DNA of 26,500 bases from Candidatus Zixiibacteriota bacterium (GTDB lineage Bacteria; Zixibacteria; MSB-5A5; JAABVY01; JAHJOQ01), in assembly GCA_024275215.1 (NCBI GenBank), contig JAJRZO010000053.1, forward strand, positions 1 through 26,500. The letters are read 5' to 3'. The notes beneath the pieces are model-generated. The model saw only the letters and a list, made by a program, of their open reading frames with translations, was not told the DNA's origin and ran no database searches. Made by a program: the position numbers and the translations under genes. Below are positions 11,452 to 26,500 of the stretch, in pieces; within the stretch, counting starts at the first letter, position 1; every line of letters begins with the position of its first letter.

Positions 11452-12804
11452 ATGAATATCATCGTGATCGGGATGGGTGAAGTCGGTAAGCATATAGCTG
11501 GCTTTCTCGCTTCCGAGGATCACAATGTAACGATCATCGACACTGATCAGCACGCTGTTGCGAAAGCCGAGGAACAGATGGATGTGATGGCATTAGTTGG
11601 TCAGGGTGGCAGCACCAAATGCTTGAAAAAAGCCGAGGCGCACAAAGCTGATCTTGTAATCGCCGTAACCGATGACGATGAAGCAAATCTTCTCGCTGCC
11701 TACAACGCAAAGAGTCTTGGTGCAAAGAAGACAATAGCGAGAGTATCATCTCGTGAGTACCTCGAGGGCGAGTCGGGAGTTTATCACAATGTTGTAGGCG
11801 CCGATCTCGTGATATGCCCGCCAATCCTTTCTGCGATCGAGATTTCCAAACTGGTCAAGGCAGTCGGAGCAGTTTTTGTGGAAACTTTCGCACACAATCA
11901 AGTGGAACTCATTCAGCTTCCCATGAACGAACAATTAAAAGCTGTTGGAATGAGACTGAAAGATATTTCCATGCCGGAAAACACGCTCATTGCCGCAATA
12001 TCCCGCGATGACCGACTTATCATCCCTTCCGGAGACGACGAGATTCTTTTCAACGATGAAGTATTGGTAATAGGCAAAACTGATTACATCCCGAAGGTCG
12101 AGGATTTCTTCGGCAAGAAACTGCGTGGTTCAGCCCACAAGGTGATAATCGTTGGTGGCGGCGAGATCGGGTTCTCGGTTGCGCGCTCGCTCAGCGGCGG
12201 GGACCTCGAAGTTACTGTTATCGACAAAAGTCCGGAGCGGTGTAGATTTCTCTCCGAAGAGCTTCGCAATGTTCTCGTGATTCAGGGTGACGGCACCGAT
12301 ATGGCGATACTCGAAGAAGTCAAGATTGGCGACTGCGATGTATTCATTTCAGCAGTATCCGAAGGCGAAGAGGTCAACCTGCTGGCGGGACTGCTCGCAA
12401 AGCGGCTCGGCGCTCGAAAAAGTGTTGTTCTGGCGGATAAACCCGACTACAAGGAACTGTACGAACAGATCGGTATCGATGCAGTTGTATCTCCCCGTCT
12501 CGTTGCTGCAAATCAGATTATGAAATATGTTCGGGCCGGGACGGTAATCTCTGTAACCATTCTCGAAGAGGGTAAAGGTGAAATTTTGGAGATAATCGCT
12601 CCGCCTTCCGCGAGGATTGTAAAAAAACCGTTAATGGAGCTCGGATTCCCGAAGGGAGCAATTATAGGCGCGATCGCAGGACCTGATGGTATCGTCGTTC
12701 CAAAAGGGAGCGACACGGTGCCACCGAATTCCACAGCCATAGTGTTCACGATGCCCCATTCTCGTAAAAAAGTCGAACGGCTGTTCAAAGTCAAGAAATC
12801 ATGA
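11452..12804 (+). CDS. trkA: Trk potassium uptake system regulatory subunit TrkA
   Basis: 450 aa with two RCK_N/RCK_C units and Rossmann motifs GMGEVG and GGGEIG. Coupled to trkH by an ATGA overlap. Confidence 0.95.
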   Translation: MNIIVIGMGEVGKHIAGFLASEDHNVTIIDTDQHAVAKAEEQMDVMALVGQGGSTKCLKKAEAHKADLVIAVTDDDEANLLAAYNAKSLGAKKTIARVSSREYLEGESGVYHNVVGADLVICPPILSAIEISKLVKAVGAVFVETFAHNQVELIQLPMNEQLKAVGMRLKDISMPENTLIAAISRDDRLIIPSGDDEILFNDEVLVIGKTDYIPKVEDFFGKKLRGSAHKVIIVGGGEIGFSVARSLSGGDLEVTVIDKSPERCRFLSEELRNVLVIQGDGTDMAILEEVKIGDCDVFISAVSEGEEVNLLAGLLAKRLGARKSVVLADKPDYKELYEQIGIDAVVSPRLVAANQIMKYVRAGTVISVTILEEGKGEILEIIAPPSARIVKKPLMELGFPKGAIIGAIAGPDGIVVPKGSDTVPPNSTAIVFTMPHSRKKVERLFKVKKS

Positions 12805-14246
12805 ACTACAGGACTATCGCCAAACTGCTCGGCCTGCTGCTGATCGGCACTGCCATATTCATGGCTACTTCGATCATTCCAGCCGTAATCCTGGAGGACT
12901 CGAGAAGCCTGATTTCGTTTATCCTGTCAGTTGCTGTCACAGGTATCGCGGGAGGCGCGCTCTACTTCGCAGGCAGAAATGAAACAGGCCCCATACATGC
13001 GCGAGAGGCTGTTGCTGTAGTAACGCTCGGCTGGCTGACTGTATCGCTGTTCGGTGGCATTCCATATATGATCGACGGCACATTCTCGAATCCGGCAGAC
13101 GCATTTTTTGAATCAGCATCGGGATTTACAACCACCGGCTCATCAGTGATAACAAATATAGAAGCATCATCCAAGTCGATTCTTTACTGGCGATCACTTA
13201 CTCAATGGCTCGGTGGAATGGGAATCATCGTGCTGTTCATCGCGATTCTTCCACAGTTGGGCGTTGGGGCAAGACATTTATTCAAGTCGGAGGTGCCGGG
13301 ACCTATCACCGAAGGACTCAAACCCAAACTAAAACATACTTCAGCAGCGCTCTGGAAAATTTACATCGGCATCACAGCCGCACTCTTTGTCAGTCTGATG
13401 CTCGCAGGTATGGACTTTTTCGATTCGGTTTGCCATTCTCTGACATGTATGGCGACTGGTGGATTCTCAACAATGAATATGTCCATCGCATACTATGACT
13501 CAGTGGCGATCGACATCATTTTTACGATCTTTATGCTGTTCGCAGGAGTCAATTTCGGACTGTATTATGTTCTGACAAAAGGGCGATTCCGAGAATTCTT
13601 CACTAATGTCGAATTCAAAGTATACTGTGCGATTAACATAGTCAGCATTCTATTGATTACAATTGCAATCCTCGAACGCCATTCGAGTTTCTTAACAGCT
13701 CTCAGATACGCATCGTTTCAGACTCTTTCTGTATCTACTACTACCGGATTCGCTACTGACAATTTTGATCTTTACCCGTCGTTCGCTAAAATCCTGATGG
13801 TCGTCCTGATGTTCATAGGTGGATCGGCAGGGTCAACAGCAGGCGGTATTAAAGTATCGAGGATTATCATCGTTCTGAAGGCAGCATATAACGAAATCTA
13901 CAAAGCCTTTCATCCACATGCAGTTTTTGCCGTAAAAGTCGGGAGGCAGGTGATCGAGGAGAGTGTGATACGATCGGTACTGGTCTTTTTCGGCGTGTTC
14001 ATTATCTCATTCGTTGTCGGAACTCTCGCGATGGCTGCGATGGGACTCGACATGGCGACTGCAGCAACATCAGTTGTTGCAACTCTGGCAAATATCGGTC
14101 CCGGACTTGCGAAAGTCGGCGCAATCGAAAACTATGCGTTTGTTCCGTGGAGCGGGAAAATTCTGCTGTCATTCCTGATGATCCTCGGTCGTCTCGAACT
14201 GTTCACAGTTCTGGTTTTATTTATCCCCGATTTCTGGAAACGCTGA
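12801..14246 (+). CDS. trkH: Trk potassium uptake membrane subunit TrkH
   Basis: Pore-loop motifs FFESASGFTTTG, ATGGFS, TTTGF and LANIGPG, plus WLGGMGII, GGSAGSTAGGIK and MILGRLELF. Confidence 0.95.
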   Translation: MNYRTIAKLLGLLLIGTAIFMATSIIPAVILEDSRSLISFILSVAVTGIAGGALYFAGRNETGPIHAREAVAVVTLGWLTVSLFGGIPYMIDGTFSNPADAFFESASGFTTTGSSVITNIEASSKSILYWRSLTQWLGGMGIIVLFIAILPQLGVGARHLFKSEVPGPITEGLKPKLKHTSAALWKIYIGITAALFVSLMLAGMDFFDSVCHSLTCMATGGFSTMNMSIAYYDSVAIDIIFTIFMLFAGVNFGLYYVLTKGRFREFFTNVEFKVYCAINIVSILLITIAILERHSSFLTALRYASFQTLSVSTTTGFATDNFDLYPSFAKILMVVLMFIGGSAGSTAGGIKVSRIIIVLKAAYNEIYKAFHPHAVFAVKVGRQVIEESVIRSVLVFFGVFIISFVVGTLAMAAMGLDMATAATSVVATLANIGPGLAKVGAIENYAFVPWSGKILLSFLMILGRLELFTVLVLFIPDFWKR

Positions 14247-14495
14247 CCCGTCAGTTTTCACGAGCAGATGGAAGAACGGAAGTCGTTTAGAAATGCTATG
14301 GCGTTGCAACATAACAACTAAAGACGGATAATGGTCATGTATCGATCCTAAACCAGAGAGTCTCAACTGATATTCTTGAGGACATTATTGTATTCTCGAT
14401 GTACAATGAAACCTGGTGATATGATCGAATTCTCGCAATCCTGATCTAAAGGTCGATTCTGTTTATGCCATATATAAAAGGAACAAAGTCGGATT

Positions 14496-16391
14496 ATGGA
14501 CAGAGTAACTGACACAAACAGCACACACAAACAACACTCCCTTGCCGCGCTGTCGCTGGCGGCGCTCGGCGTTGTTTTTGGGGATATTGGCACAAGTCCG
14601 CTATATGCGATCCGGGAATGTTTCCACGGAGAATTTGGCATTGCAGCTTCCCGCGACAATGTTCTCGGCGTCCTGTCGCTGATGTTCTGGGCTTTGATGA
14701 TAATTGTTTCAATCAAATACCTTACATTCATATTCAGAGCTGACAACAGAGGCGAAGGCGGGGTTCTGGCGCTCACAGCCCTTATCAGAGGCATCGCGGG
14801 TTCAAGCACCGGTCGGCGTCGGTTTCTGATAGGAATGGGAGTCTTCGCAGCATGCCTGCTTTATGGTGATGGTATGATCACACCGGCTATTTCCGTTATG
14901 AGCGCAGTTGAAGGACTGAAAGTTATCACTCCGGACTTTAAGCAGTTCGTAATACCTCTGACACTTGTTATCCTTGCCGGATTGTTCTTTCTTCAACATC
15001 GGGGCACTGCAAAAGTAGGATCGATTTTCGGACCTGTGATTTTAGTCTGGTTCGTTACGCTTGCTATCCTCGGCGTCAGGCAGATCATACACCATCCAGA
15101 CGTGTTTGCGGCACTTCTGCCAACTTATGGAATCAATTTTCTTATGAAAACCGGCCTTCACGGTTTTACAGTACTCGGTGCGGTTTTTCTTGTCGTAACA
15201 GGTGCTGAAGCCTTGTATGCGGATCTCGGGCATTTCGGTAAAAAACCGATTCGGACAGTCTGGTTTTATCTCGTGTTACCGGCTTTGCTGCTCAACTATT
15301 TCGGTCAGGGGGCATCGCTTCTGTCCAATCCGGAGAACTCATACCACCCATTTTATGCGACTGTGCCTTCATGGGCGGTGATACCGATGGTGTTCCTCGC
15401 AACCTGCGCAACTATCATTGCATCGCAGGCTGTCATAACCGGCGTATTTTCACTCACACGGCAGGCAATGCAGATGGGCTACCTTCCACGACTTAGAGTC
15501 GTACACACATCATCGAAGCATTTCGGACAAATCTATGTTCCACAGGTTAACTGGCTCGTGATGATCGCAACGCTGGCTCTTGTCCTCATATTTCAATCGT
15601 CAAGCAAGCTGGCTGCTGCCTATGGTGTCGCAGTAACTTCGACTATGCTCATTTCAAGCATACTGCTATATGTTGTGGCGAGAGAAAAATGGAAATGGAA
15701 CATGATTATAACGGGAGCCCTGGTTGCCGTATTTCTCATTGTGGATATTGGTTTCTTCTCCGCAAATATTACCAAGATATTTCATGGCGCATGGTTCCCG
15801 CTCGTACTCGGTGGAATCACAATGCTGATAATGACAACATGGAAACGCGGTAGAGAAATCCTGTCCGAGCAGTTGCGTTCACTGGCAATTCCATTCGCTG
15901 ACCTGAGAAGAAGACTCGCGGACGAAAAAATCACGCGAGTTAAAGGACACGCTGTTTTTCTTACCGGTCAGCCCCAGACAGTACCGATAGCGTTGACTCA
16001 CAATCTTGATCATAATAAGATTGTTCATTCGAGAGTTGTGCTGCTCAATTTCTCATGGCTCGAAATCCCGCGCGTAAGGAACAGAGACAAGCTGCAGATC
16101 GAGGATCTCGGCTCCGGGTTCCACCAGATCACAGCCTCCTATGGATTCATGGAATCTCCGAGTGTTCCGAATGTACTCTCGCTCGCTGTCGGACAGGGGC
16201 TGGAACTGCCGATCGATCAGGCAAGTTTCTTTCTTGGTCGCGAGAAGCTTGTTGTCAATCCGGAGATGCATATGAGCCGATGGCGCGCAAACCTTTTCGC
16301 ATTCCTGTCAAGAAACGCGTATGACGCTTCGTCATTCTTCGAGATTCCCGAGGACAGGGTTATCGAGGTAGGGGTACGTCTCAGCATATAG
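14496..16391 (+). CDS. kup: KUP/HAK/KT family potassium transporter Kup
   Basis: GVVFGDIGTSPLYA, GEGG, YGDGMITPAISV, GAEALYADLGHFG and SQAVITG motifs, with a cytoplasmic C-terminal domain ending VIEVG. Confidence 0.95.
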   Translation: MDRVTDTNSTHKQHSLAALSLAALGVVFGDIGTSPLYAIRECFHGEFGIAASRDNVLGVLSLMFWALMIIVSIKYLTFIFRADNRGEGGVLALTALIRGIAGSSTGRRRFLIGMGVFAACLLYGDGMITPAISVMSAVEGLKVITPDFKQFVIPLTLVILAGLFFLQHRGTAKVGSIFGPVILVWFVTLAILGVRQIIHHPDVFAALLPTYGINFLMKTGLHGFTVLGAVFLVVTGAEALYADLGHFGKKPIRTVWFYLVLPALLLNYFGQGASLLSNPENSYHPFYATVPSWAVIPMVFLATCATIIASQAVITGVFSLTRQAMQMGYLPRLRVVHTSSKHFGQIYVPQVNWLVMIATLALVLIFQSSSKLAAAYGVAVTSTMLISSILLYVVAREKWKWNMIITGALVAVFLIVDIGFFSANITKIFHGAWFPLVLGGITMLIMTTWKRGREILSEQLRSLAIPFADLRRRLADEKITRVKGHAVFLTGQPQTVPIALTHNLDHNKIVHSRVVLLNFSWLEIPRVRNRDKLQIEDLGSGFHQITASYGFMESPSVPNVLSLAVGQGLELPIDQASFFLGREKLVVNPEMHMSRWRANLFAFLSRNAYDASSFFEIPEDRVIEVGVRLSI

Positions 16392-16651: not shown

Positions 16652-16668
16652 TGGGCACTATGTTTGCT
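16652..16668 (+). promoter_or_regulatory. Candidate sigma54 (-24/-12) promoter
   Basis: TGGGCACTATGTTTGCT: GG at 16654-55 and GC at 16666-67 with exactly 10 nt between, matching GGCAC-N5-TTGCW. It lies about 38 nt before ATG 16706, which has AGGTGA at 16694-16699. Confidence 0.55.
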
Positions 16669-16705: not shown

Positions 16706-17098
16706 ATGAATAATAATGTACCGGGTATTGTAGTACTGGACGACAATGCCACATATTTGGCTTCAATATCGGGAATTCTTGGGTCGCGATATAGATTGAA
16801 ATCTTTTAGCTCCAGTAAAATGCTCATTGATTATCTATCGCTGAACCCCGCAGACCTCCTTGTCATGTCTGCTAACCTGAAGGAAGACTATAGCTTCCTT
16901 GTCATGCTTGAAGTCAGTGAGCGTTGGCCCAAACTACCAATTGTGATAACAACCGATTGTAGCATGCAGTATCTCCGCATCACTATGAATTATCGCGAAA
17001 TAACAGAAGGTGTAGTGTGGATGCCAGTCTCGGCGGATCATCTTCTCGAAGTTATAGATCAGGCTCTTAGCGATCCTGTCGCCACCAGTGATTCGTAA
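16706..17098 (+). CDS. Single-domain CheY-like receiver protein, degenerate (pseudo-receiver)
   Basis: Receiver-like pattern IVVLDD...DLLVMS...LPIVITT...WMP...LLEVIDQAL. The expected phospho-Asp position is Ser and the conserved Lys of KP is Met. Confidence 0.7.
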   Translation: MNNNVPGIVVLDDNATYLASISGILGSRYRLKSFSSSKMLIDYLSLNPADLLVMSANLKEDYSFLVMLEVSERWPKLPIVITTDCSMQYLRITMNYREITEGVVWMPVSADHLLEVIDQALSDPVATSDS

Positions 17099-17283: not shown

Positions 17284-19881
17284 ATGTACTCAATATCCAC
17301 TGCTAACCGCAAGCCGTCGCTATCAAAGACGTATTATCTAATATCAGTTTTCCTGCTAATCATTACATTGGTTTTGTGTAATGTTGCGAGTGGGGAAAAT
17401 GATGAAACCTGCCTTGATTGCCACAGCGACAGAACTCTCGAGTCCGAGTCCGGCAAAAATGTCTTTGCAGATACCTCCGTGCTAAGCAATTCTGTCCACG
17501 GCGGACTTGCATGTCTTGATTGTCATAATCAGGATGGCGCTGATTTCGAGGATTTTCCTCACTTCAAAACATATAAGCCTGTCAACTGCGAGGATTGTCA
17601 TGCCAAGCAGGGATTTGTCTATATGGAGTATTTCAACAAAATGCTCCGGAAGAAAGGGACAAAAAACATCCCGGACTGCAAGGAATGTCATGGCACACAT
17701 GATGCCCACAAGCAACCCGGAATGGAATTGGTCTGTGATCGATGTCACAAGGAAATAGCGAAAGATTACAGGCAGAGCTACCATTTCAAGAAATATCCTG
17801 AGGATCCCCGCAAATACCCGATCTGCACTACCTGCCACGACGCTCACTTCAAGTCGAAGCGAGAGGTCATGTCGGAAATAGAATACAAACAGGAAATCGT
17901 GGATATTTGCTCAAAATGTCACATGCGGGACATTGAAACTTATGTTCACTCTCGTCATTTCCATGAATTGGAAGCAGGAAACACGAAAGCGCCCGTATGT
18001 ACGAGTTGCCATGAGAAACACGCAATACGTAAGCCTTCGGATCCGAAATCGAAAGTGCACTCATCCAACATCACTGACGTCTGCAATAGCTGCCATCCCG
18101 GACACAAGGAAAGTCTCCATGTCGATCCCACCATGAACGCATCTGCGATCACATGCGCGTCATGTCACACCGGCCACCAGACTGATATGGCCTCAATCGA
18201 CCAGCAGGTATTCAAAGAAGGAGGGGTTTACAACCAGTGCAATGTTTGCCATAGAAACGAACGACACAGGAAAGAGAACCTTGCTCATGGGAAACTGATG
18301 CTGATTGACCAAAACGGCGACCAGGCCAACTGCACCAAATGCCATGTATACCACTGGAATCTGCCCGGTTTGGACAATGACCTCATAAAACACCGAGGGA
18401 TCAAATGCGTGAACTGTCATGCTGAACAGCAGAGACAGTACCGGGGATCGATTCATGCCAAAGCCAGAGCACAGGGCATTATGGAAGCGCCGAGTTGTGT
18501 TGATTGTCACGGAGAAACATATGTAAAGAAAACTTCTGAACAGTTCACTCCGGAAGGAATAGTAAAGCTCTGTTCATCATGTCACTCAGACAAAGACAGG
18601 ATGCTTAAATTCGGAATAAATACCCATGTTGTCGAGGGATATAAAGAGACATATCACGGTAAACTCTTTGAGACAGGCACTCGCGAAGTCAAATTTGCCG
18701 TTTGCACAAATTGTCATGGTTCCCACACGATTCGCGCTCCGGATGAGCCGGAGTCAAGTGTAAACAGATCTCATATTGTAAAGACATGCCAACAGTGTCA
18801 TCCTAAAGCAAATGACCGGTTTGTATCATACCTCGTACATCCTGTCGCAGCTACCGACGAGGAGCTTGAGCAATCGCAGGAATTTAACGGGACAGGCCGT
18901 GTTGATACTACCGAAACTGGTCAAAACAGCGGTGGCGGGAACTGGCAAAAATTCAATTCGATCATTACGCATCTTATGACAATCCTGCTTGTGGCAGTTC
19001 TCGGCGTTTTTGGAATTCACACTGCGATGTGGTTTCAGCGCGGGATTAGAGGGCGGGTGAAACAAAGACAAAAGTGCTACAGACGAGTCGACGGTTTTCA
19101 CCGATTCCTGCATGTTCTTGTCAATATCAGCTTTCTCACTCTTGCTTTCACAGGTCTGCCACAGTCTTATGCGCATACCGACCTGGCAAAATGGTTGTTT
19201 AATAATGTCATGTCCATACAAACAGCACAGAGACTTCATCTTATCGCCGCATTTATTACATTTACATATTTCATTGCTCATGTTATATATCTTATTGTTC
19301 GAATAAGGAAAAGCGGATTTAAGTCTTTGATGAGTGGTCCAAATACTATGGTATTCCGCAAGAAGGATTTTCACGATGCTGTTGATCACGTGAAGTGGTT
19401 TTTCGGCAAAGGTCCGGAACCCAGGTTTGATCGCTGGACATATTGGGAGAAATTCGACTACTCGGCTGTATTCTGGGGCGTATTTGTGATTGGACTGTCG
19501 GGACTAATACGATGGCAGGATGAATTCTTTGGCGGCCTTCTGGGTGGAGGGATTGTCAGCCTTGCGGACACTATTCACAAGGAAGAAGCGCTTCTGGCTA
19601 CCGCCTTCATATTCATCGTTCACTTTTTCAACACTCACTTGCGTGCAAGTAAATTCCCAATGGATGTATCGATTTACACAGGAAGAATCTCCGAGAAAGA
19701 ATTCAGGGAAGAACGATCAACTGAATATGAACGAGCAGTGAAAAATGGAACTCTTCAATCACTGGAAGTAAAACCACCGGGTGTTTTTCAAACAGTGTTA
19801 GCTTACTTATGGGGGACTATTGCACTTGTAGTAGGATTCTTCCTGCTGGCGCTGATCATAATAGGCCAGTTTACAGCATAA
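17284..19881 (+). CDS. Multiheme cytochrome c (17 CxxCH) fused to a membrane cytochrome b domain, CbcL-like quinol:cytochrome c oxidoreductase
   Basis: N-terminal signal or anchor, 17 CxxCH motifs (CLDCH ... CQQCH), then about 6 TM segments carrying His residues (HRFLH, RLH...AH, IHKEE...VHFFNTH) and RFDRWTYWEKFDYSAVFWG. Confidence 0.85.
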   Translation: MYSISTANRKPSLSKTYYLISVFLLIITLVLCNVASGENDETCLDCHSDRTLESESGKNVFADTSVLSNSVHGGLACLDCHNQDGADFEDFPHFKTYKPVNCEDCHAKQGFVYMEYFNKMLRKKGTKNIPDCKECHGTHDAHKQPGMELVCDRCHKEIAKDYRQSYHFKKYPEDPRKYPICTTCHDAHFKSKREVMSEIEYKQEIVDICSKCHMRDIETYVHSRHFHELEAGNTKAPVCTSCHEKHAIRKPSDPKSKVHSSNITDVCNSCHPGHKESLHVDPTMNASAITCASCHTGHQTDMASIDQQVFKEGGVYNQCNVCHRNERHRKENLAHGKLMLIDQNGDQANCTKCHVYHWNLPGLDNDLIKHRGIKCVNCHAEQQRQYRGSIHAKARAQGIMEAPSCVDCHGETYVKKTSEQFTPEGIVKLCSSCHSDKDRMLKFGINTHVVEGYKETYHGKLFETGTREVKFAVCTNCHGSHTIRAPDEPESSVNRSHIVKTCQQCHPKANDRFVSYLVHPVAATDEELEQSQEFNGTGRVDTTETGQNSGGGNWQKFNSIITHLMTILLVAVLGVFGIHTAMWFQRGIRGRVKQRQKCYRRVDGFHRFLHVLVNISFLTLAFTGLPQSYAHTDLAKWLFNNVMSIQTAQRLHLIAAFITFTYFIAHVIYLIVRIRKSGFKSLMSGPNTMVFRKKDFHDAVDHVKWFFGKGPEPRFDRWTYWEKFDYSAVFWGVFVIGLSGLIRWQDEFFGGLLGGGIVSLADTIHKEEALLATAFIFIVHFFNTHLRASKFPMDVSIYTGRISEKEFREERSTEYERAVKNGTLQSLEVKPPGVFQTVLAYLWGTIALVVGFFLLALIIIGQFTA

Positions 19882-19929
19882 GGATTTCAAAATGATAGTA
19901 ATATCCATGAAAATTGTGAGGACAAAAAA

Positions 19930-20676
19930 TTGAATAAACTCGGAATCCCGGGACAGATAGTACCGCTGGCAATTATTGGTGTTGTGGTCATTGCGGCATT
20001 CATTGCGGCACGAATGCTGTTTGTTCCTGATACTTTTGGAGAATACGGGCACTACCGTGCCAGCGCTGTTGAGGAAATCGCCTCGCAGGAAATAGTCTAT
20101 GCCGGTCACGAGGCTTGCAACGATTGCCACGACGATATCTTTGAAACAAAGCAGGAATCGAAGCACAGAGATGTCTCGTGTGAAGCATGCCATGGTCCGG
20201 CTGCAGACCACATTGAAGCTCCGGATGAATTCACCCCTACAGCTCCGCGCGGGCGAGGATACTGCCCTTTATGTCACGGCTATAACCCGTCTCGACCATC
20301 CGGCTTTCCACAAATCTTACCCAAGACCCACAATCCCGGTAAAGCATGTATGACATGTCATGATCCACACAGCCCTGTACTCCCGCACGCGCCGGAGGAT
20401 TGTTCTGCCTGTCACCGGGACATTGCCAATGTAAAACAGGTATCACACCATGCCACTCTGTCGTGCAGAACATGCCACGACGTTCCTGATGAACACCTCA
20501 TTCAGCCCAAGTTCGTAAGGGCTGAAAAACCGGCCAATAGGGAACGGTGTGGACAATGTCACGACCGTGATTCAGATAGCCCCAGAGAGATACCGAGAAT
20601 CAATATCGAAACACACGGAGAACGAAATCTATGCTGGGAATGTCATTATCCTCACTATCCGGAGGTTGGTAAATGA
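19930..20676 (+). CDS. Membrane-anchored octaheme cytochrome c
   Basis: TTG start after a GAGGA site, one N-terminal TM helix, VPDTFGEYGHYR and 8 CxxCH motifs (CNDCH, CEACH, CPLCH, CMTCH, CSACH, CRTCH, CGQCH, CWECH). Confidence 0.9.
   Translation: MNKLGIPGQIVPLAIIGVVVIAAFIAARMLFVPDTFGEYGHYRASAVEEIASQEIVYAGHEACNDCHDDIFETKQESKHRDVSCEACHGPAADHIEAPDEFTPTAPRGRGYCPLCHGYNPSRPSGFPQILPKTHNPGKACMTCHDPHSPVLPHAPEDCSACHRDIANVKQVSHHATLSCRTCHDVPDEHLIQPKFVRAEKPANRERCGQCHDRDSDSPREIPRINIETHGERNLCWECHYPHYPEVGK
20116..20660 (+). repeat. Internal duplication of a tetraheme unit (period 285 bp, 95 aa)
   Basis: Both units read CxxCH-x11-H-x4-CxxCH-x5-H-x17-CxxCH-x17-H-x5-CxxCH-xPH with identical spacing. They start at 20116 and 20401. 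Confidence 0.9.
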
Positions 20677-21449
20677 TTGATAACAATAATAAGCCTGTGA
20701 ATCGCCGGGGTTTTCTCGGATCATGCTCCAGATTCATCGCTGCGGGACTGGGAGCAATAAGTGTCTTCAAATTCGGTGGTTCCCTGTGGGGACAGGAAAA
20801 CGGTCAGTATAACCCGGCGGAACACAACTACGCTATGGGTATTGATGTCCACAAGTGTATCGGCTGTGGAAGATGCGCCGACGCATGCAAGCGAGAAAAC
20901 GATGTTACGAGAGAACCATACTATTTCAGAACATGGGTAGAAAGATATGTCATACCATCAGAGGGTGAGACAGTTGTCGACAGCCCGAACGGCGGGATTG
21001 ATGGTTTCCCGGAAACAGTCGACAAAAATGATGTTTTGCGGACATTCTTCGTTCCCAAACTGTGTAATCACTGTTCTAATCCACCATGCGTTCAGGTCTG
21101 CCCGGTTGGAGCAACATTCGCCAGCCGTGATGGTGTGGTTCTTGTCGATGAAAAATACTGTGTCGGTTGTCGTTACTGTATTCAGGCATGTCCCTATGGT
21201 GCTCGGTATTTTCATCCTGAAAGCAAGACGGCTGACAAGTGCACGTTTTGCTACCACCGGATTACAAAAGGTCTTCCTCCTGCATGTGTGGAGGTCTGTC
21301 CAACACATGCACGGGTTTTCGGTGAAATCGGTCAGTTGAGTAGTCCGCTCAGGAGATTCGTTCGCTTCAACGACCTGACAGTGTTGAAGCCGTGGTTGAA
21401 TACGAAACCAAAAGTTTATTATGCTGGCGCAGACGGAGAGGTTCGGTAG
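20673..21449 (+). CDS. TAT-exported 4Fe-4S protein, NrfC/DsrO/PsrB/HmcB family
   Basis: Twin-arginine signal NRRGFLG. Cys clusters CIGCGRCADAC, CNHCSNPPCVQVCP, CVGCRYCIQACP and CTFC...CVEVCP fit four [4Fe-4S] clusters. Confidence 0.92.
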   Translation: MIDNNNKPVNRRGFLGSCSRFIAAGLGAISVFKFGGSLWGQENGQYNPAEHNYAMGIDVHKCIGCGRCADACKRENDVTREPYYFRTWVERYVIPSEGETVVDSPNGGIDGFPETVDKNDVLRTFFVPKLCNHCSNPPCVQVCPVGATFASRDGVVLVDEKYCVGCRYCIQACPYGARYFHPESKTADKCTFCYHRITKGLPPACVEVCPTHARVFGEIGQLSSPLRRFVRFNDLTVLKPWLNTKPKVYYAGADGEVR

Positions 21450-21452
21450 TCC

Positions 21453-22673
21453 ATGGAAAACCTGGTAACAACAATGGCAGGCAATTTCGGGGGGATCACT
21501 GGTTATATCTACCCGAATGAATATGAACTACACTGGCAACTTCTTATCGTCATCTATCCTTATTTGACAGGGTTGGTTGCCGGTGCTTTTATCCTCGCTT
21601 CACTGGAAAGATTATTCAGGGTGAATGAGCTGCAGCCAGTGTACAGACTATCGCTGTTGACTGCACTCTCGTTTATGATAGTTGCACCACTGCCGCTGCT
21701 TGCACATCTGGGGCATCCTGAACGATCCTTTGAGATGTTCCTTACTCCACATGTCCAGTCAGCGATGGCAATGTTCGGATTTGTATATGGCTGGTATCTC
21801 ATGGTAGTCCTGCTTCTGGAGATATGGCTGGATTACCGCAGAGATATAGTCTTGTTCGGACGGGAGAAGAAGGGTATAAGCAAGTATTTCTATAAGTTTC
21901 TTTCTCTCGGGTTCTCAGACATCTCGGATAAATCGTTGCTATTCGATGACAAGCTCGGAAGATTCATCACAATAATAGGTATCCCATCCGCTTTCCTGCT
22001 ACACGGCTATGTCGGGTTCATATTCGGTTCAGTTAAGGCAAACCCATGGTGGGGCAGCGTTCTTATGCCTATCGTGTTTCTTTTCTCAGCGATTGTGTCA
22101 GGAATCGCTCTAATGATACTTGTCTATATGGTATCTTCTCTTTTCCGTTGGAAACAGATGAAGATGGCGTGCCTTAACAAGCTGGCAGAATTTCTGATAT
22201 ACGCAATGATTGTTGATTTTTCGCTGGAGTTGCTTGATTTCATCCACAGATTGTATCAATCCGAAGAATCGATTAGTATTCTGTCGGACATGATTTCAAG
22301 CCGGTTGTTCGTCAGTTTGATCGTGACCCAGATTCTTCTCGGCACGATTTTACCGCTTGTTTCGCTGATTTCGGCCAGATTCGGCAAATTCCCTGATGAA
22401 TTGAAACGAATGCTCTACTTCATTGCGGCAATCCTTGTACAGGTCGGAATATTCAGCACTCGCTGGAATGTCGTGATCGGGGGACAACTGTTTTCGAAAA
22501 GCTTGAGAGGTTTGACCTTCTACAAAATTGAGCTTTTTGGATTAGAAGGCTTGCTAATTACGATCGCACTGCTCATATTGCCGCTGGTTATCTTGTATGT
22601 TCTGGTCAAAGTGCTGCCACCATGGTCTGATGTGGTAGCCGATCAGACACAATCGCAAACGCAACCAAATTGA
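21453..22673 (+). CDS. NrfD/PsrC/DsrP family integral membrane quinol-interacting subunit
   Basis: W..LIVIYPYLTGLVAGAF, LLAHLGHPER, SAMA and RWNVVIGGQ motifs, about 10 hydrophobic segments. Lies 3 nt after the Fe-S gene. Confidence 0.9.
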   Translation: MENLVTTMAGNFGGITGYIYPNEYELHWQLLIVIYPYLTGLVAGAFILASLERLFRVNELQPVYRLSLLTALSFMIVAPLPLLAHLGHPERSFEMFLTPHVQSAMAMFGFVYGWYLMVVLLLEIWLDYRRDIVLFGREKKGISKYFYKFLSLGFSDISDKSLLFDDKLGRFITIIGIPSAFLLHGYVGFIFGSVKANPWWGSVLMPIVFLFSAIVSGIALMILVYMVSSLFRWKQMKMACLNKLAEFLIYAMIVDFSLELLDFIHRLYQSEESISILSDMISSRLFVSLIVTQILLGTILPLVSLISARFGKFPDELKRMLYFIAAILVQVGIFSTRWNVVIGGQLFSKSLRGLTFYKIELFGLEGLLITIALLILPLVILYVLVKVLPPWSDVVADQTQSQTQPN

Positions 22674-22712
22674 TAACCGTAGTGTTGTACATGTGAACTC
22701 AAGCTGAGGACT

Positions 22713-24227
22713 ATGATCGTGCAGTTGAAATTTCCCCGTTTGACCCACAATAGAATCAGTTACATAGGAGCAATCGGCGCTATTTTCGTTGGTATATCTA
22801 TCCTGCTGATGTTCATCACCAACAGCATTCTGGAAGATACCAACCCATATTTCGGAATCCTCCTGTATGTGATCATGCCGACAGCTCTTATTTTTTCGTT
22901 GATACTGATTCCCATCGGTATGATTCGCGAGTGGCACAGATGGCGCCACAGTGACAAACCTGTCCCTGTCAAATGGCCGATTATCGATCTTAACCGCGGC
23001 GGACATAGAAACGCGATGATGGTTTTTGTCTTCGGGACAATTGGATTCGTGCTCGTGAGTTCCTTTGGAGTATATCAAGCGTATCATTTCAGCGAATCGG
23101 TAGAATTTTGCGGCACGACATGCCACACAGTGATGAATCCCCAATATACGGCTTACCAGGAATCTCCGCATGCCAAAGTACCCTGCGCATCGTGTCATGT
23201 AGGTTACGGTGCCGGCTGGTACGCCAAGTCAAAGCTGTCGGGAGCATATCAGGTGTACGCAGCTATTGCGAATCGATTTCCTCGTCCCATACCGACTCCG
23301 ATCAAAAATCTCCGACCGGCGCAGGAAACATGCGAACAATGCCACTGGCCGGAAAAAACATACGGCGCCCAGCAGAGACAGTTCAACCACTATATGTATG
23401 ACAAAGAAAACACCCTGTGGAAAATCAATATGCTAATCAAAACCGGCGGTGGTGATCCGCAATCCGAGCACGCATCAGGGATTCATTGGCACATGAATAT
23501 CGGTGTTGAGATCGAGTACATTCCAAGAGATGAGAAACGGCAGGATATTCCATGGGTTAGGGTCACTGATAAGCTTACCAATCGCGTGACAATTTATCAG
23601 GATACTGATAATCCGATGGATCCGGCGAAGATAGAGACTGCCAAAAAGCGTAAGATGGATTGTCTCGACTGCCATAACCGTCCCAGCCACGTATTCAGAA
23701 CCGCCGACTATGCCATTGACAAGATGATTAGCGCCAGGAAGATTGATCGACGGATACCGGAAATAAAACGTATCGCGGTAGAGGCAATGTCGGCTGAATA
23801 TCCGGACAAGAAAACTGCGCTCATGGATATTGCAAATTACATCTCAACGCATTACAGAAACCAAAATGACTCCCTGTACCGCGCGATGCGCACATCGATT
23901 GACAAATCTATCGTGGCTGTTCAGGAGGCATATTCTAAAAACATCTTCCCTGAAATGAAAGTACGATGGACTGAATATCCCAACAATATAGGTCACTTCA
24001 CAAATGTCGGTTGTATGCGCTGTCATGCCGGCAATCACGAAAGTGAAGATGGACTCAAGATCACCCATGACTGTAACGCCTGCCATACTATTCTGGCGGA
24101 AGGCACCGGTGAAGATTACGAGGCCACAACGTCACCTGATGGATTAGAGTTTCGCCACCCTGAAGATATCGATGAGGCGTGGCGCGAAATGGGATGCTAT
24201 GAATGCCATGACGGCACTCAGCCGTAG
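22713..24227 (+). CDS. NapC/NirT-like heptaheme membrane cytochrome c, ImcH-like
   Basis: Three N-terminal TM helices (NPYFGI motif). One CxxxCH (CGTTCH) plus six CxxCH (CASCH, CEQCH, CLDCH, CMRCH, CNACH, CYECH). RPIPTPIKNLRPA, GIHWH and FPEMKV.W..YPNNIGH motifs. 504 aa. Confidence 0.85.
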   Translation: MIVQLKFPRLTHNRISYIGAIGAIFVGISILLMFITNSILEDTNPYFGILLYVIMPTALIFSLILIPIGMIREWHRWRHSDKPVPVKWPIIDLNRGGHRNAMMVFVFGTIGFVLVSSFGVYQAYHFSESVEFCGTTCHTVMNPQYTAYQESPHAKVPCASCHVGYGAGWYAKSKLSGAYQVYAAIANRFPRPIPTPIKNLRPAQETCEQCHWPEKTYGAQQRQFNHYMYDKENTLWKINMLIKTGGGDPQSEHASGIHWHMNIGVEIEYIPRDEKRQDIPWVRVTDKLTNRVTIYQDTDNPMDPAKIETAKKRKMDCLDCHNRPSHVFRTADYAIDKMISARKIDRRIPEIKRIAVEAMSAEYPDKKTALMDIANYISTHYRNQNDSLYRAMRTSIDKSIVAVQEAYSKNIFPEMKVRWTEYPNNIGHFTNVGCMRCHAGNHESEDGLKITHDCNACHTILAEGTGEDYEATTSPDGLEFRHPEDIDEAWREMGCYECHDGTQP

Positions 24228-24277
24228 TATTACTATTGTTTAGAAACTAACTTGAGAAAATAAGAGCGATGTTAATC

Positions 24278-24313
24278 ATCGGCCCCACCATCTGTGGTGA
24301 GGCCGATTTTTTT
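24278..24313 (+). terminator. Rho-independent terminator between the two convergent cytochrome operons
   Basis: ATCGGCCCCACCA-TCTG-TGGTGAGGCCGAT, a 13-bp stem with one mismatch, followed by a T run on the + strand. Confidence 0.8.
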
Positions 24314-24325
24314 ATATGGCAGAAG

Positions 24326-24847
24326 TTAGCCCTTTTTTGCAGGCTTCTTCGAAGCAATCTTGTGAACGCCTTTTGCTTTCATCTTTTCAAAGTCGAATTT
24401 CTCTTTTGCCTGAAATTCTTTAGGCACATTCTCATTGTGACATTTCATACAAGTTTTTTCATCGGGAATGATAAGCCCGTTTTCTATAGCCAGCTTCCTG
24501 TCCTGCATGATTTTCTTCTTCTTATAATCATTTCCCGGACCATGACATGCTTCGCACTGAACCCCTTGCAGAAGTTCGCCTTTTGCTGTTGTTCCGGTTG
24601 AATGACAAGCAACGCATTTTTTGTCCTTCTGATTCTCAGGCTTCAAAACATCCCAAGCCTTGGCATGTTTGGTCTCAAGCCAGGAAGGATGTATGCCATC
24701 CTTTTTGTGGCACATTCTGCACTTCTTGACACCAACATAACTGTGTGTGGTTTTGGTTGAATCAGCCTTCTTTGCTTCTCCAGCAAAGGCAGGCATACCA
24801 CACGCTACGGCTAGGTAGATAATTCCCAGCATCAAACAGGTTTTCAT
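24326..24847 (-). CDS. Periplasmic tetraheme cytochrome c, cytochrome c554-like, very Lys-rich
   Basis: Signal peptide, YVGVKKCRMCH, W..TKHA, CVACH, GVQCEACHGPG and CMKCH. Strong AGGAGG RBS. Confidence 0.88.
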   Translation of the reverse strand: MKTCLMLGIIYLAVACGMPAFAGEAKKADSTKTTHSYVGVKKCRMCHKKDGIHPSWLETKHAKAWDVLKPENQKDKKCVACHSTGTTAKGELLQGVQCEACHGPGNDYKKKKIMQDRKLAIENGLIIPDEKTCMKCHNENVPKEFQAKEKFDFEKMKAKGVHKIASKKPAKKG

Positions 24848-24968
24848 TACAGCTTTCCTCCTTGTTTTTTCAGTTGATTTCCATTGTTTATTATCTACTA
24901 CATATCAATTTCTAAGTTGTACTTATATTGTGATGATTGGTTCGATCAAAGAGAGTAAACTACAATCC

Positions 24969-26231
24969 TCACTGCTTCTGCTGACGCATATCCGCCTGCC
25001 GAGCCTTCATCCACAGCAATCCTGCAAGCAGGCAAAGAAGTACTACCGAAACAACCAATCCTTTTCGCCTGAAAACATAGCTGTCGAGCAAATCATCGGT
25101 GACGCCATCAGTTTTGAGAACAAGTTCGATTCCTTCTCTTGATATCTTGGTTACCTTTTCGAGATTGAAAGTATGAACCGCAGTTCTTGCCGTGTACTCC
25201 TTCTGTCGGGCATCACGCATGCTGAAAAGCATATTGTCGACATAGAGACCTTTACGATCCGCCTCGTCGATCTTGTTATTGACTTGTGTCATCAGCATAT
25301 TAAGACTATCAAGAGCATTCCGCATCGATTCTGCCGTTTCGATTCCACCAGTACCGTCATCGAGATCATGACACTGTTTACAGACCGACTTCTCACCCTG
25401 CAACATTTCAGTCGTGGGGCGTTCAATACGGTGGTTCGAATGGCAGGTTTCGCAGGCAGGCATCTTCAACATCTCGAAATACTCGAAATGAGTCGAGGCC
25501 TCAAAGTCATCCATATTATTCGCGTGGCAAATACCGCAAACATGATCGATTGAACTGACTTCGGGGGGCACAGCACCATGATTGCCATGACAATCATTGC
25601 ATGCCGGAGCACCCATATCACCATTTTCAAGCAATGCAATCCCATGCACTGAGCGCGAAAAATCTGCAAACTGATCAGTAGGAATCTCATAGTCAGCCAT
25701 ATAGTCCTTATCAGAATGACATCCGGCACAGGTATTTGGTACATTTTGAGCATAAATAGTCGATTTCGGATCATCGGCAGCACGAATTCCGTGAGCAGTA
25801 TGACATGATACGCATTGGGCAGTCTTGCGGTCATGGGCGGCATTTCGGATACCATGCACGGATGTCAGGTATTTGGAATACTGATAGGTCGATAATCCGG
25901 GATCGAACTGCTTCATGAAACTCGGATTGCTATGACACTTTGAGCAAAACTCGGGGATTTCAAGTTCATCAGGAGCGCCGATGAAACCTTTTTCCTCGCT
26001 CATCGCCACCTCTTCATCATCAGAAGTCGGGTCACCGCCGTGACATCCGGCGCATCCCAGCCCTTCCCTGTTGTGAACATCATTCTTGAACAGCGTTGTC
26101 GGTGTGTCAGGCTGGCCTTCATCAAGCTCCATGTGGCATTTCTCACAGGTACTGCCCGGCTCACTCGCAAGCAACTGCGCGGGAGCCGACACGCATAGAA
26201 AAAGCGTAAGGGTTGCAACAAACAGCTTCAT
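24969..26231 (-). CDS. Nonaheme cytochrome c with a helical stalk and C-terminal membrane anchor
   Basis: 9 CxxCH motifs (CEKCH, CAGCH, CSKCH, CVSCH, CAGCH, CNDCH, CGICH, CETCH, CKQCH), a heme-free helical stretch and a TM segment GLVVSVVLLCLLAGLLW. Start set at ATG 26231 (MKLFVATLTLFLCVSAPA signal); 26261 and 26267 are alternatives. Confidence 0.88.
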   Translation of the reverse strand: MKLFVATLTLFLCVSAPAQLLASEPGSTCEKCHMELDEGQPDTPTTLFKNDVHNREGLGCAGCHGGDPTSDDEEVAMSEEKGFIGAPDELEIPEFCSKCHSNPSFMKQFDPGLSTYQYSKYLTSVHGIRNAAHDRKTAQCVSCHTAHGIRAADDPKSTIYAQNVPNTCAGCHSDKDYMADYEIPTDQFADFSRSVHGIALLENGDMGAPACNDCHGNHGAVPPEVSSIDHVCGICHANNMDDFEASTHFEYFEMLKMPACETCHSNHRIERPTTEMLQGEKSVCKQCHDLDDGTGGIETAESMRNALDSLNMLMTQVNNKIDEADRKGLYVDNMLFSMRDARQKEYTARTAVHTFNLEKVTKISREGIELVLKTDGVTDDLLDSYVFRRKGLVVSVVLLCLLAGLLWMKARQADMRQQKQ

Positions 26232-26250
26232 CGCTGCACTAATAGTTCCG

Positions 26251-26499
26251 TCAGGAAACATAACCAAGAACCGTTAAGACAATAATGTAAACCAGAGCGA
26301 AGACGCCAAAATAAGTGACCAATTTGCTCCGCGCTTTATTTTTCTCATCAATATCAAAGAAAGGTATCAAAGTCCAAATAATAGCTCCCAGACCAAATCC
26401 CATAAGTCCGAAAAGTTCGCCTTCAATAAAAAGCACGTGTGCTGGTATATATTTTAATGTCTGGAACATGAACATGAAATACCATTCAGGCTTGATCCC
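26251..26499 (-). CDS. C-terminal part of cytochrome b / subunit IV of a Rieske/cytochrome b (bc-type) complex, truncated by the window end
   Basis: Extending the listed 74-aa ORF to the edge gives GIKPEWYFMFMFQTLKYIP...IPFFD. PEWY is the Qo-site motif; two TM helices follow. Confidence 0.88.
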   Translation of the reverse strand, partial: GIKPEWYFMFMFQTLKYIPAHVLFIEGELFGLMGFGLGAIIWTLIPFFDIDEKNKARSKLVTYFGVFALVYIIVLTVLGYVS

Positions 26500-26500
26500 G

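Follow-up and report, generated by a model that had tools for sequence, protein, structure and literature searches.

In Geobacter sulfurreducens, ImcH, CbcL and the Cbc3-6 gene clusters act as quinone oxidoreductases for extracellular acceptors, and ImcH, CbcL and CbcBA have been assigned different potential windows (bioRxiv 10.1101/2021.04.15.440034; PMC13591261). Homologues of ImcH and CbcL are already known to be widespread and to co-occur, in a survey outside which the Zixibacteria fall (PMC6295460). In the first genome of this phylum, RBG-1, MtrAB, multihaem cytochromes and PetAB were reported from one cluster (PMC3903129), and iron-cycling as well as porin-cytochrome genes are on record for Zixibacteria (PMC3903129, PMC7005843, PMC8478452). 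Herein, these systems are compared with a respiratory island at positions 17284-26500 of a contig from Candidatus Zixiibacteriota bacterium (GenBank JAJRZO010000053.1, assembly GCA_024275215.1). The stretch of DNA analysed, 26,500 nucleotides (nt) long and called the window below, is the entire contig (C520) of a metagenome-assembled genome (MAG). The assembly comprises 2.72 Mb in 541 contigs and is 94% complete with 1.5% contamination.

The island is composed of known families and represents no new kind of system. It brings together a CbcL-type fusion (gene A), a trio of octahaem cytochrome, iron-sulfur (FeS) protein and NrfD-type membrane subunit (genes B, C and D), an ImcH-type cytochrome (gene E) and a Rieske/cytochrome b complex with multihaem partners (genes F, G and H). 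By gene content and by analogy with Geobacter, the island is best read as the inner part of a respiratory chain that probably leads from the quinone pool through periplasmic multihaem cytochromes to an extracellular acceptor, a mineral or metal. This reading is preferred because the genome encodes an MtrAB-like outer-membrane conduit and because, in a related member of the Zixibacteria, such a conduit lies directly downstream of the trio. The locus would offer a nearly complete example of an electron-export (or import) chain from the Fibrobacterota-Chlorobiota-Bacteroidota (FCB) group that is built from interchangeable cassettes, which in Geobacter occupy separate loci. The plus-strand genes are as follows.

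17284..19881, plus strand: gene A, a CbcL/MtrH/MtoC-type fusion of 865 amino acids (aa) with 17 CxxCH motifs, an N-terminal signal anchor and a C-terminal FdnI-like dihaem cytochrome b
19930..20676, plus strand: gene B, an octahaem cytochrome c of 248 aa with eight CxxCH motifs and an N-terminal anchor (transmembrane segment 14-32)
20673..21449, plus strand: gene C, a periplasmic ferredoxin of 258 aa with four [4Fe-4S] clusters, exported by twin-arginine translocation (Fer4_11, 101 bits; twin-arginine motif RRGFLGS)
21453..22673, plus strand: gene D, an integral membrane quinone-site subunit of the NrfD/PsrC family, 406 aa (PF03916, 125.7 bits; at least eight transmembrane segments)
22713..24227, plus strand: gene E, an ImcH-family inner-membrane seven-haem cytochrome of 504 aa with three N-terminal transmembrane segments, one CxxxCH and six CxxCH motifs

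Published members of the CbcL/MtrH/MtoC family span 416-1034 aa, carry 3-23 haems and have six transmembrane segments (PMC6295460), and gene A agrees with the family in length, haem number, transmembrane segments and conserved histidines. Its N-terminal anchor leads into a periplasmic domain with 17 haems, behind which lies the C-terminal membrane domain; six hydrophobic segments are present, the anchor included. Five histidines of the membrane domain (H55, H97, H111, H210 and H225 in domain numbering) are invariant in 25 homologues. This domain scores 28.1 bits against PF01292 (Ni_hydr_CYTB), just under the cut-off of 30.1, and the NCBIfam model TIGR01583 matches gene A at E 1.4e-3. The AlphaFold2 (AF2) model of the membrane domain, with a predicted local distance difference test (pLDDT) score of 88.7, gave a sole significant Foldseek match in the PDB, chain 1kqf_C (E 1.4e-5, TMt 0.75), which is FdnI of E. 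coli formate dehydrogenase-N. Judged by the published family features and this predicted fold, gene A has the CbcL/MtrH/MtoC architecture. As in CbcL (GSU0274), MtrH and MtoC, a periplasmic multihaem domain is fused to an FdnI/HydC-like b-type membrane domain; unlike CbcL, which has 9 haems, gene A has 17, and it belongs to a distinct orthologue group, neighbouring genomes mostly carrying 11-, 13- or 19-haem versions. A second copy of gene A (76% identity), cut short at the contig start, lies on contig C410 (L030:1-4214) and is followed by a 663-aa protein with eight haems in place of the trio. This copy could be a true paralogue or could reflect strain heterogeneity in the bin.

The signature of the ImcH family comprises a length of about 495-519 aa, three N-terminal transmembrane segments, a CX3CH motif beside the transmembrane domain, six CX2CH motifs and a NapC/NirT region (PMC6295460). 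All of these features are found in gene E, as in ImcH of Geobacter sulfurreducens (GSU3259). Its hydropathy profile places transmembrane segments at 18-36, 48-66 and 102-120, the CxxxCH motif stands at 133 and the CxxCH motifs at 158, 207, 317, 434, 454 and 495, and the NapC/NirT region spans residues 102-188 (PF03264, 34.8 bits against a cut-off of 24.1). The same CxxxCH/CxxCH pattern is present in ImcH-like genes of other phyla (loci L074, L088, L090, L117 and L120). NCBIfam offers no model for ImcH, CbcL, CbcSTU or CbcVWX. PDB sequence searches returned weak NrfH and NrfB matches for genes E and A (NrfH chain 2j7a_C matching gene E at E 2.4e-4) and no match for gene D. Family homologues share 31-49% identity with Geobacter ImcH (PMC6295460), and more than 8000 homologues of gene E were found. 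Gene E differs from the described ImcH in two respects. Its host phylum is not listed in the 2018 survey of Zhong & Shi (PMC6295460), and its operon also contains a CbcL-type gene and an NrfCD trio, unlike imcH of Geobacter, which occupies a separate locus. The ImcH and CbcL families are hence extended to Zixibacteria with explicit tests of their features.

For the B-C-D trio, the closest counterpart is Geobacter Cbc4 (CbcSTU, GSU0068-0070), in which a c-type cytochrome, an NrfC/DsrO-like FeS protein and a membrane subunit are combined without a catalytic subunit (PMC11434368). The trio has the same three-part architecture and likewise lacks a catalytic subunit, a resemblance and not a membership; similar cytochrome/NrfC/NrfD-type modules are found in Shewanella SirCD, DsrOP, Qrc and Nrf. 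What distinguishes the trio from Cbc4 and other NrfCD modules is its cytochrome, an anchored octahaem made of two tetrahaem units. The CxxCH motifs of gene B stand at 63, 84, 112 and 140 and again at 158, 179, 207 and 235, so that a spacing of 21/28/28 occurs twice with an offset of 95, and gene B precedes C and D in every relative locus compared. Genes C and D fall below all NCBIfam equivalog cut-offs for TtrB/C, DsrO/P, NrfC/D, QrcC/D and HmcB/C, the best matches of gene C being TtrB (203 bits), DsrO (182.4) and NrfC (150.7). Assignment of C and D to DsrOP was rejected, with gene C at 182.4 against a cut-off of 200 and gene D at 46 against 350; genuine DsrJ and DsrO genes are located on contig C287. 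Assignment of the trio to alternative complex III was also rejected, given its single NrfD gene, its ferredoxin without a molybdopterin-like domain and its octahaem cytochrome. Alternative complex III (ActABCDEF) contains a molybdopterin-like ActB, two NrfD-like subunits, pentahaem ActA and monohaem ActE.

The fourth module is encoded on the minus strand, which converges on the plus-strand run at a shared terminator.

24277..24313, no strand assigned: shared hairpin terminator, TCGGCCCCACCA-TCTG-TGGTGAGGCCGA followed by T7, between the convergent runs
24326..24847, minus strand: gene F, an exported c554-type tetrahaem cytochrome of 173 aa with four CxxCH motifs (PF13435, 40.8 bits), the last gene of its operon
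24969..26267, minus strand: gene G, a nonahaem cytochrome c with nine CxxCH motifs, an N-terminal signal and a single C-terminal transmembrane anchor at 404-422
26251..26500, minus strand: gene H, the 3' part of a cytochrome b gene, with PEWY (PF00032, Cytochrom_B_C, 40.6 bits) and a subunit-IV-like C-terminus

The start of gene G is more likely the ATG at 26231 than the TTG at 26267. The break in the cytochrome b gene stems from the assembly and not from the choice of window, which spans a complete contig. The contig end (26484-26500) is identical over 17 bases to C232:1-17, and the cytochrome b frame reads through the join (...APIGIKPE|WYF...). On contig C232, positions 203-769 encode the N-terminal domain of cytochrome b (PF00033, 180 bits) and positions 860-1318 a Rieske protein (CTHLGC...CACHNG). 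The overlap therefore gives the operon order Rieske protein, cytochrome b, nonahaem G and tetrahaem F, the assignment of the Rieske protein and of a full-length cytochrome b depending on this 17-nt join of C520 and C232. A Rieske 2Fe-2S protein, both cytochrome b domains and the PEWY motif are thus present; a monohaem cytochrome c1 or f is not, gene G with its C-terminal anchor occupying the cytochrome c1 position and tetrahaem F following it. Read from these sequences, the minus-strand genes are predicted to encode a multihaem variant of the Rieske/cytochrome b complex. Geobacter Cbc3 similarly combines a Rieske protein and a full-length PEWY cytochrome b with a multihaem cytochrome c in place of c1, and the same layout is found in the PetAB and multihaem cluster of Zixibacteria RBG-1 (PMC3903129) and in what PMC5317091, citing Dibrova et al. 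2013, gives as 'early anaerobic bc complexes'. The present complex is unlike the known multihaem complexes in its acceptor, where a c554-like tetrahaem joins a nonahaem whose C-terminal anchor resembles that of c1, and in its recurrence beside the octahaem/FeS/NrfD trio in many phyla. Contig C232 also holds a divergent NHL-repeat protein with a C-terminal domain of the type IX secretion system (T9SS) type and a seven-haem cytochrome that runs off the contig.

The preliminary description of this locus had counted 45 c-type haem motifs, four membrane modules and two convergent runs meeting at one terminator. An independent recount from the translated open reading frames (ORFs) at 17284-26500 returned exactly the same number, 17+8+7+4+9 = 45, the seven of gene E being six CxxCH and one CxxxCH, and Pfam and NCBIfam results support the identity of each module. 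Genome-wide, 187 CxxCH motifs occur in 25 ORFs with at least three motifs each; 44 of the 187 lie in the window, which therefore holds about a quarter of the counted motifs. The terminator is likewise borne out, since the fold of 24225-24330 has an energy of -29.3 kcal/mol (z = -3.5), equalled by 0 of 200 shuffled sequences, and the minus-strand run stops 13 nt from the hairpin, which a simple consensus terminator scan had missed. Finally, the proposed analogy to Geobacter ImcH, CbcL and Cbc proteins holds at the level of family-defining features, that is motifs, domains, transmembrane segments, invariant histidines and fold (PMC6295460).

No porin-cytochrome conduit had been seen in the window, and the genome search that the preliminary description had proposed, for an MtrB-like porin and cytochrome c maturation genes, located candidates for both. 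CcmC, CcmE and CcmF are present. On contig C320, a decahaem of the DmsE/MtrA family (TIGR03508, 159.5 bits on a contig-truncated gene, cut-off 192.2) is followed by a 532-aa unannotated protein and then by an eight-haem cytochrome. The 532-aa protein belongs to a family of about 106 proteins, almost all from Zixibacteria, of which 13 of 45 members are matched by PF11854 (MtrB_PioB). Its AF2 model (pLDDT 88.6) is a 26-strand barrel with MtrB chain 6r2q_B as the top PDB match (E 1.7e-17, TMq 0.81), the next matches, TonB-dependent receptors, reaching about 0.5. By sequence family and modelled fold, C320 is thus predicted to encode an MtrAB-like conduit, an MtrA/DmsE-family decahaem beside a 26-strand MtrB-like barrel. 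The order of decahaem and barrel, with MtrB as the best match, is shared with the Shewanella Mtr complex (6R2Q) and MtoAB. The barrel, at about 520 aa, is shorter than MtrB, whose 6R2Q chain has 649, and is of a mostly Zixibacteria-restricted family, and the downstream cytochrome has eight haems and is not MtrC-like.

The link between this conduit and the inner-membrane cassettes is provided by the Zixibacteria MAG DeMMO3_3 (L066), in which two CbcL-like genes, B, C, D, an F-like gene, a decahaem, a barrel and a five-haem protein follow one another, the decahaem and barrel sharing 50% and 39% identity with those on C320. The contiguity of trio and conduit in L066 means that, in a relative, the inner-membrane cassettes are tied by synteny to an outer-membrane conduit, one with a Zixibacteria-specific MtrB-like barrel. 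In L066 the conduit is followed by a GSU2203/GSU2204-like pair that matches contig C170 of the present genome (L032:815-3506, minus strand), on which a GSU2203-family decahaem (363 bits) and a GSU2204-family CXXCH (seleno)protein (451 bits) both score above cut-off. In addition, contig C314 (L039) carries a 564-aa unannotated signal-peptide protein between four-haem and six-haem cytochromes; although dissimilar to the barrel on C320, it marks a possible second candidate conduit.

The distribution of the modules was compared closely in 40 relatives of the same class and widely with one genome per species. In the close comparison, ImcH-like genes were found in 31 genomes and orthologues of gene E (50-60% identity) in 13, same-genus and same-family genomes having solely a 33-36% clade of ImcH-like genes. 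Full-length gene A orthologues (63-69%) occur in six relatives, and gene D orthologues (64-78%) also in six, all with an intact B-C-D and with varying neighbours. In the wide comparison, relatives of gene D were confirmed in at least 578 species genomes from more than ten phyla. The best 80 of these share 61-78% identity and come from Zixibacteria, Ignavibacteria, Gemmatimonadota, Acidobacteriota, Bacteroidota, Calditrichota, Krumholzibacteria, Latescibacteria, Eisenbacteria, Dadabacteria, Binatia, Deltaproteobacteria-labelled MAGs and others. With such identity across so many phyla, the trio is more widespread and more conserved than any characterised NrfCD module. It is the most useful lead from this island, as it ranks among the most widespread and best conserved quinone modules for which, to our knowledge, there is no experimental characterisation.

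Neighbourhoods of 10 kb around the trio were inspected in these 80 loci. The trio stands alone in 36 and has at least one other quinone module nearby in 41. Cytochrome b (25 loci), Rieske protein (22) and a G-like nonahaem (31) are recurrent neighbours; cytochrome b or a G-like gene is present in 32, the G-like gene usually directly after cytochrome b, and F-like genes follow the G-like gene in L070, L074, L114 and L117. A CbcL-like fusion lies near the trio in 16 loci, mostly with 11, 13 or 19 haems, although 5 of the 21 CbcL-like matches are cytochrome b-only ORFs without haem motifs, and an ImcH-like gene in 8. A free, signal-anchored cytochrome of about 600-800 aa with 17-18 haems occurs near the trio in 13 loci from several phyla (e.g. 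L047, L058, L061, L092, L097 and L116). The 17-haem domain of gene A was considered as a fused form of this protein, an idea rejected because the two share only weak, generic multihaem similarity. Recurrent extras other than cytochromes are a molybdopterin protein (seven loci), histidine kinases (six) and sigma-54 activators (five).

Near-copies of the island are found in several phyla. The order is C-D-E-A (19 haems) converging on F and G in Krumholzibacteriia (L074), B-C-D-E-A in Latescibacterota (L120), B-C-D-Rieske-cytochrome b-G-E in Bacteroidetes (L090) and B-C-D-x-A-E in Dadabacteria CSP1-2 (L088), and in Ignavibacteriae (L117) it runs A, A, E, B, C, D, Rieske, cytochrome b, G, F, F and further cytochromes. 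The rarity implied by the preliminary description therefore did not survive, as the same composition recurs in many phyla and a comparable MtrAB/multihaem/PetAB cluster is present in the first Zixibacteria genome (PMC3903129). Composition and trio recur across MAGs, while the exact order A-BCD-E was seen in none of the 40 relatives or 80 loci. The proposed multi-entry hub for extracellular transfer stands in the identity of its modules and in their probable role, and falls as a single hub, the cassettes being single or reordered in relatives. A fixed multi-subunit machine of nine genes that works only as a whole might be suggested by the tight spacing of the plus-strand genes and by the single shared terminator. 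Given that the trio is so often alone, that ImcH-like genes also stand alone in places (e.g. L126) and that the order A-BCD-E was met in none of the relatives and loci compared, such a machine is highly improbable and was rejected on the evidence from relatives. Taken from these gene orders and from the patchy spread of A, D and E orthologues among the 40 relatives, the modules are independent cassettes that recombine.

A narrower partnership can also be envisaged. In about 40% of loci, the trio is paired with the Rieske/cytochrome b-nonahaem complex, and the two might be functional partners, forming a redox loop or a supercomplex in which electrons part into an uphill and a downhill branch. 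This is a tentative idea to which we give a low probability; if it were true, trio and complex would be more than alternative quinol oxidases, and in place of a set of redundant exits the island would form a conserved gearbox working in both directions.

On the preferred reading, that of respiration with extracellular acceptors, the island would supply four self-contained inner-membrane modules, each joining the (mena)quinone pool to periplasmic multihaem cytochromes. From the observed gene content, family features, folds, conservation and synteny, we infer a direction of quinol oxidation, extracellular acceptors and a division of labour. In gene A, quinol would be oxidised at the FdnI-like dihaem b domain and the electrons passed to its own 17-haem domain. 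In the trio, the cofactor-less NrfD subunit would handle quinone, the four-cluster ferredoxin would act as a relay and the anchored octahaem would pass electrons on. Gene E would work as an ImcH-type, NapC/NirT-like quinol dehydrogenase with seven haems, and the Rieske/cytochrome b complex would deliver not to cytochrome c1 but to nonahaem G and tetrahaem F. By analogy with Geobacter, the modules may serve as alternative gates for acceptors of different potential and energy yield, and all would feed a periplasmic cytochrome pool that discharges through the MtrA/MtrB-like outer-membrane conduit encoded elsewhere in the genome.

Several observations weigh against this reading. The conduit lies on a separate contig from the island in the 541-contig MAG, and a PF11854 profile search of this genome returned no match, the C320 protein included. 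The likenesses to Geobacter are drawn from published family-defining features. Furthermore, the CbcL/MtrH/MtoC family occurs in Fe(II) oxidisers as well as in Fe(III) reducers (PMC6295460), so that electrons could flow in either direction. Routes to soluble acceptors, DsrAB and DsrMKJOP among them, are also encoded in the genome: DsrA and DsrB score above cut-off, as do DsrJ (169 against 100) and DsrO (304 against 200) on C287, and an AprA fragment and a haem-copper oxidase (COX1) are present. Electrons from the periplasmic cytochrome pool could therefore go to soluble acceptors.

The first of the two alternatives raised by these observations is that the modules run mainly in reverse, moving electrons from Fe(II), minerals, a partner cell or periplasmic donors into the quinone pool, or through the Rieske/cytochrome b complex and an oxidase to O2, on the model of MtoC and CymA, which have been proposed to run toward the quinone pool in iron oxidisers. 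Besides the family's presence in Fe(II) oxidisers, this would agree with the haem-copper oxidase in the genome, with the frequent pairing of trio and Rieske/cytochrome b genes, which would suit an uphill/downhill split, and with the view of Castelle et al., who favoured Fe(II) oxidation for the RBG-1 MtrAB/PetAB cluster (PMC3903129). However, the ImcH family has to date been linked to quinol oxidation only (PMC6295460), and the eight-haem gene behind the C320 barrel holds the position of an extracellular reductase-type cytochrome. Reversed flow is accordingly regarded as rather unlikely, although it is the most credible of the alternatives.

The second alternative takes the island as internal plumbing for soluble acceptors (sulfite or sulfate via Dsr, oxygen, or nitrogen oxides via octahaem enzymes) with no extracellular role, the multihaem proteins forming a periplasmic wire to ordinary terminal enzymes as Qrc, Tmc and Hmc do in sulfate reducers. 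The Dsr, Apr and oxidase genes would fit such a role, as would an HAO-like octahaem on C280, an octahaem Otr-like protein on C119, QrcA/QrcB-like genes on C24 and an HmcB/HmcC-like pair on C94. The preliminary description had stated that its reading would fall if the gene order proved common and tied to a soluble-acceptor pathway. Yet across the 80 loci, which span many phyla, none of these enzymes recurs beside the trio or the island, and the trio has no terminal or catalytic reductase among its recurrent neighbours. In addition, gene C is not the DsrO of this genome, NrfA and NiFe hydrogenase were not found when searched for in the genome, and the trio is contiguous with an MtrAB-like pair in L066. 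A purely soluble role is hence judged unlikely, somewhat more so than reversed flow. The pair on C94 (L037:180-2812, minus strand) has an unusual form of its own, as the gene after an HmcB/HybA-like ferredoxin encodes a 624-aa protein in which an HmcC/HybB-type membrane domain (NF045714, 297 bits) is fused to a C-terminal hexahaem domain, a quinone-module fusion not commonly seen.

The assignment of the host was also upheld. The preliminary description had expected an FCB-like, non-Deltaproteobacterial organism, and the closest named homologues of gene E are from Candidatus Zixiibacteriota, followed by Krumholzibacteria, Latescibacteria and Thermoanaerobaculia. C-terminal sorting domains of the T9SS type on the window, C170 and C232 are consistent with an FCB-group host. 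On these sequence affiliations, the host is assigned to Zixibacteria, a phylum of that group.

The gaps between genes A, B, C, D and E are 48, -4, 3 and 39 nt, the start of gene C overlapping the end of gene B by 4 nt. Because the gaps are short and one terminator follows the run, these five genes are most likely co-transcribed. Two further features precede them.

16653..16668, plus strand: sigma-54-like -24/-12 element, GGGCAC-N5-TTGCT, 38 nt upstream of the receiver-like gene, with one mismatch, a weak candidate
16706..17098, plus strand: stand-alone receiver-like protein of 130 aa (Response_reg, 21.5 bits at E 2.7e-4, short of the 30.2 that Pfam requires)

The receiver-like protein heads the plus-strand run, has no output domain and has no kinase nearby. 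The sigma-54-like motif has one match in the window against about 0.83 expected by chance, and with that many chance matches per window it is not significant alone. Sigma-54 activators and histidine kinases nevertheless recur near the trio in other phyla and on contig C315 of this genome. On C315 (L031), 13-, 8- and 7-haem cytochromes and TPR-like proteins stand beside a histidine kinase and a sigma-54-dependent response regulator. Geobacter cbcBA is under sigma-54 regulation, which the arrangement on C315 and the motif at 16653-16668 echo. A search of sequencing runs for the window found one DNA run with 13% of the sampled words and no RNA run.

Elsewhere in the window, positions 7595-11158 encode a secreted protein of 1187 aa with a T9SS-type C-terminal sorting domain and a repeat of about 95 aa that occurs four times in tandem, with CGWG at the end of each copy. 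Just upstream of the island, at 11452-16391, TrkA-like, TrkH-like and Kup-like potassium-uptake genes, recognised from their translations, stand in a row.

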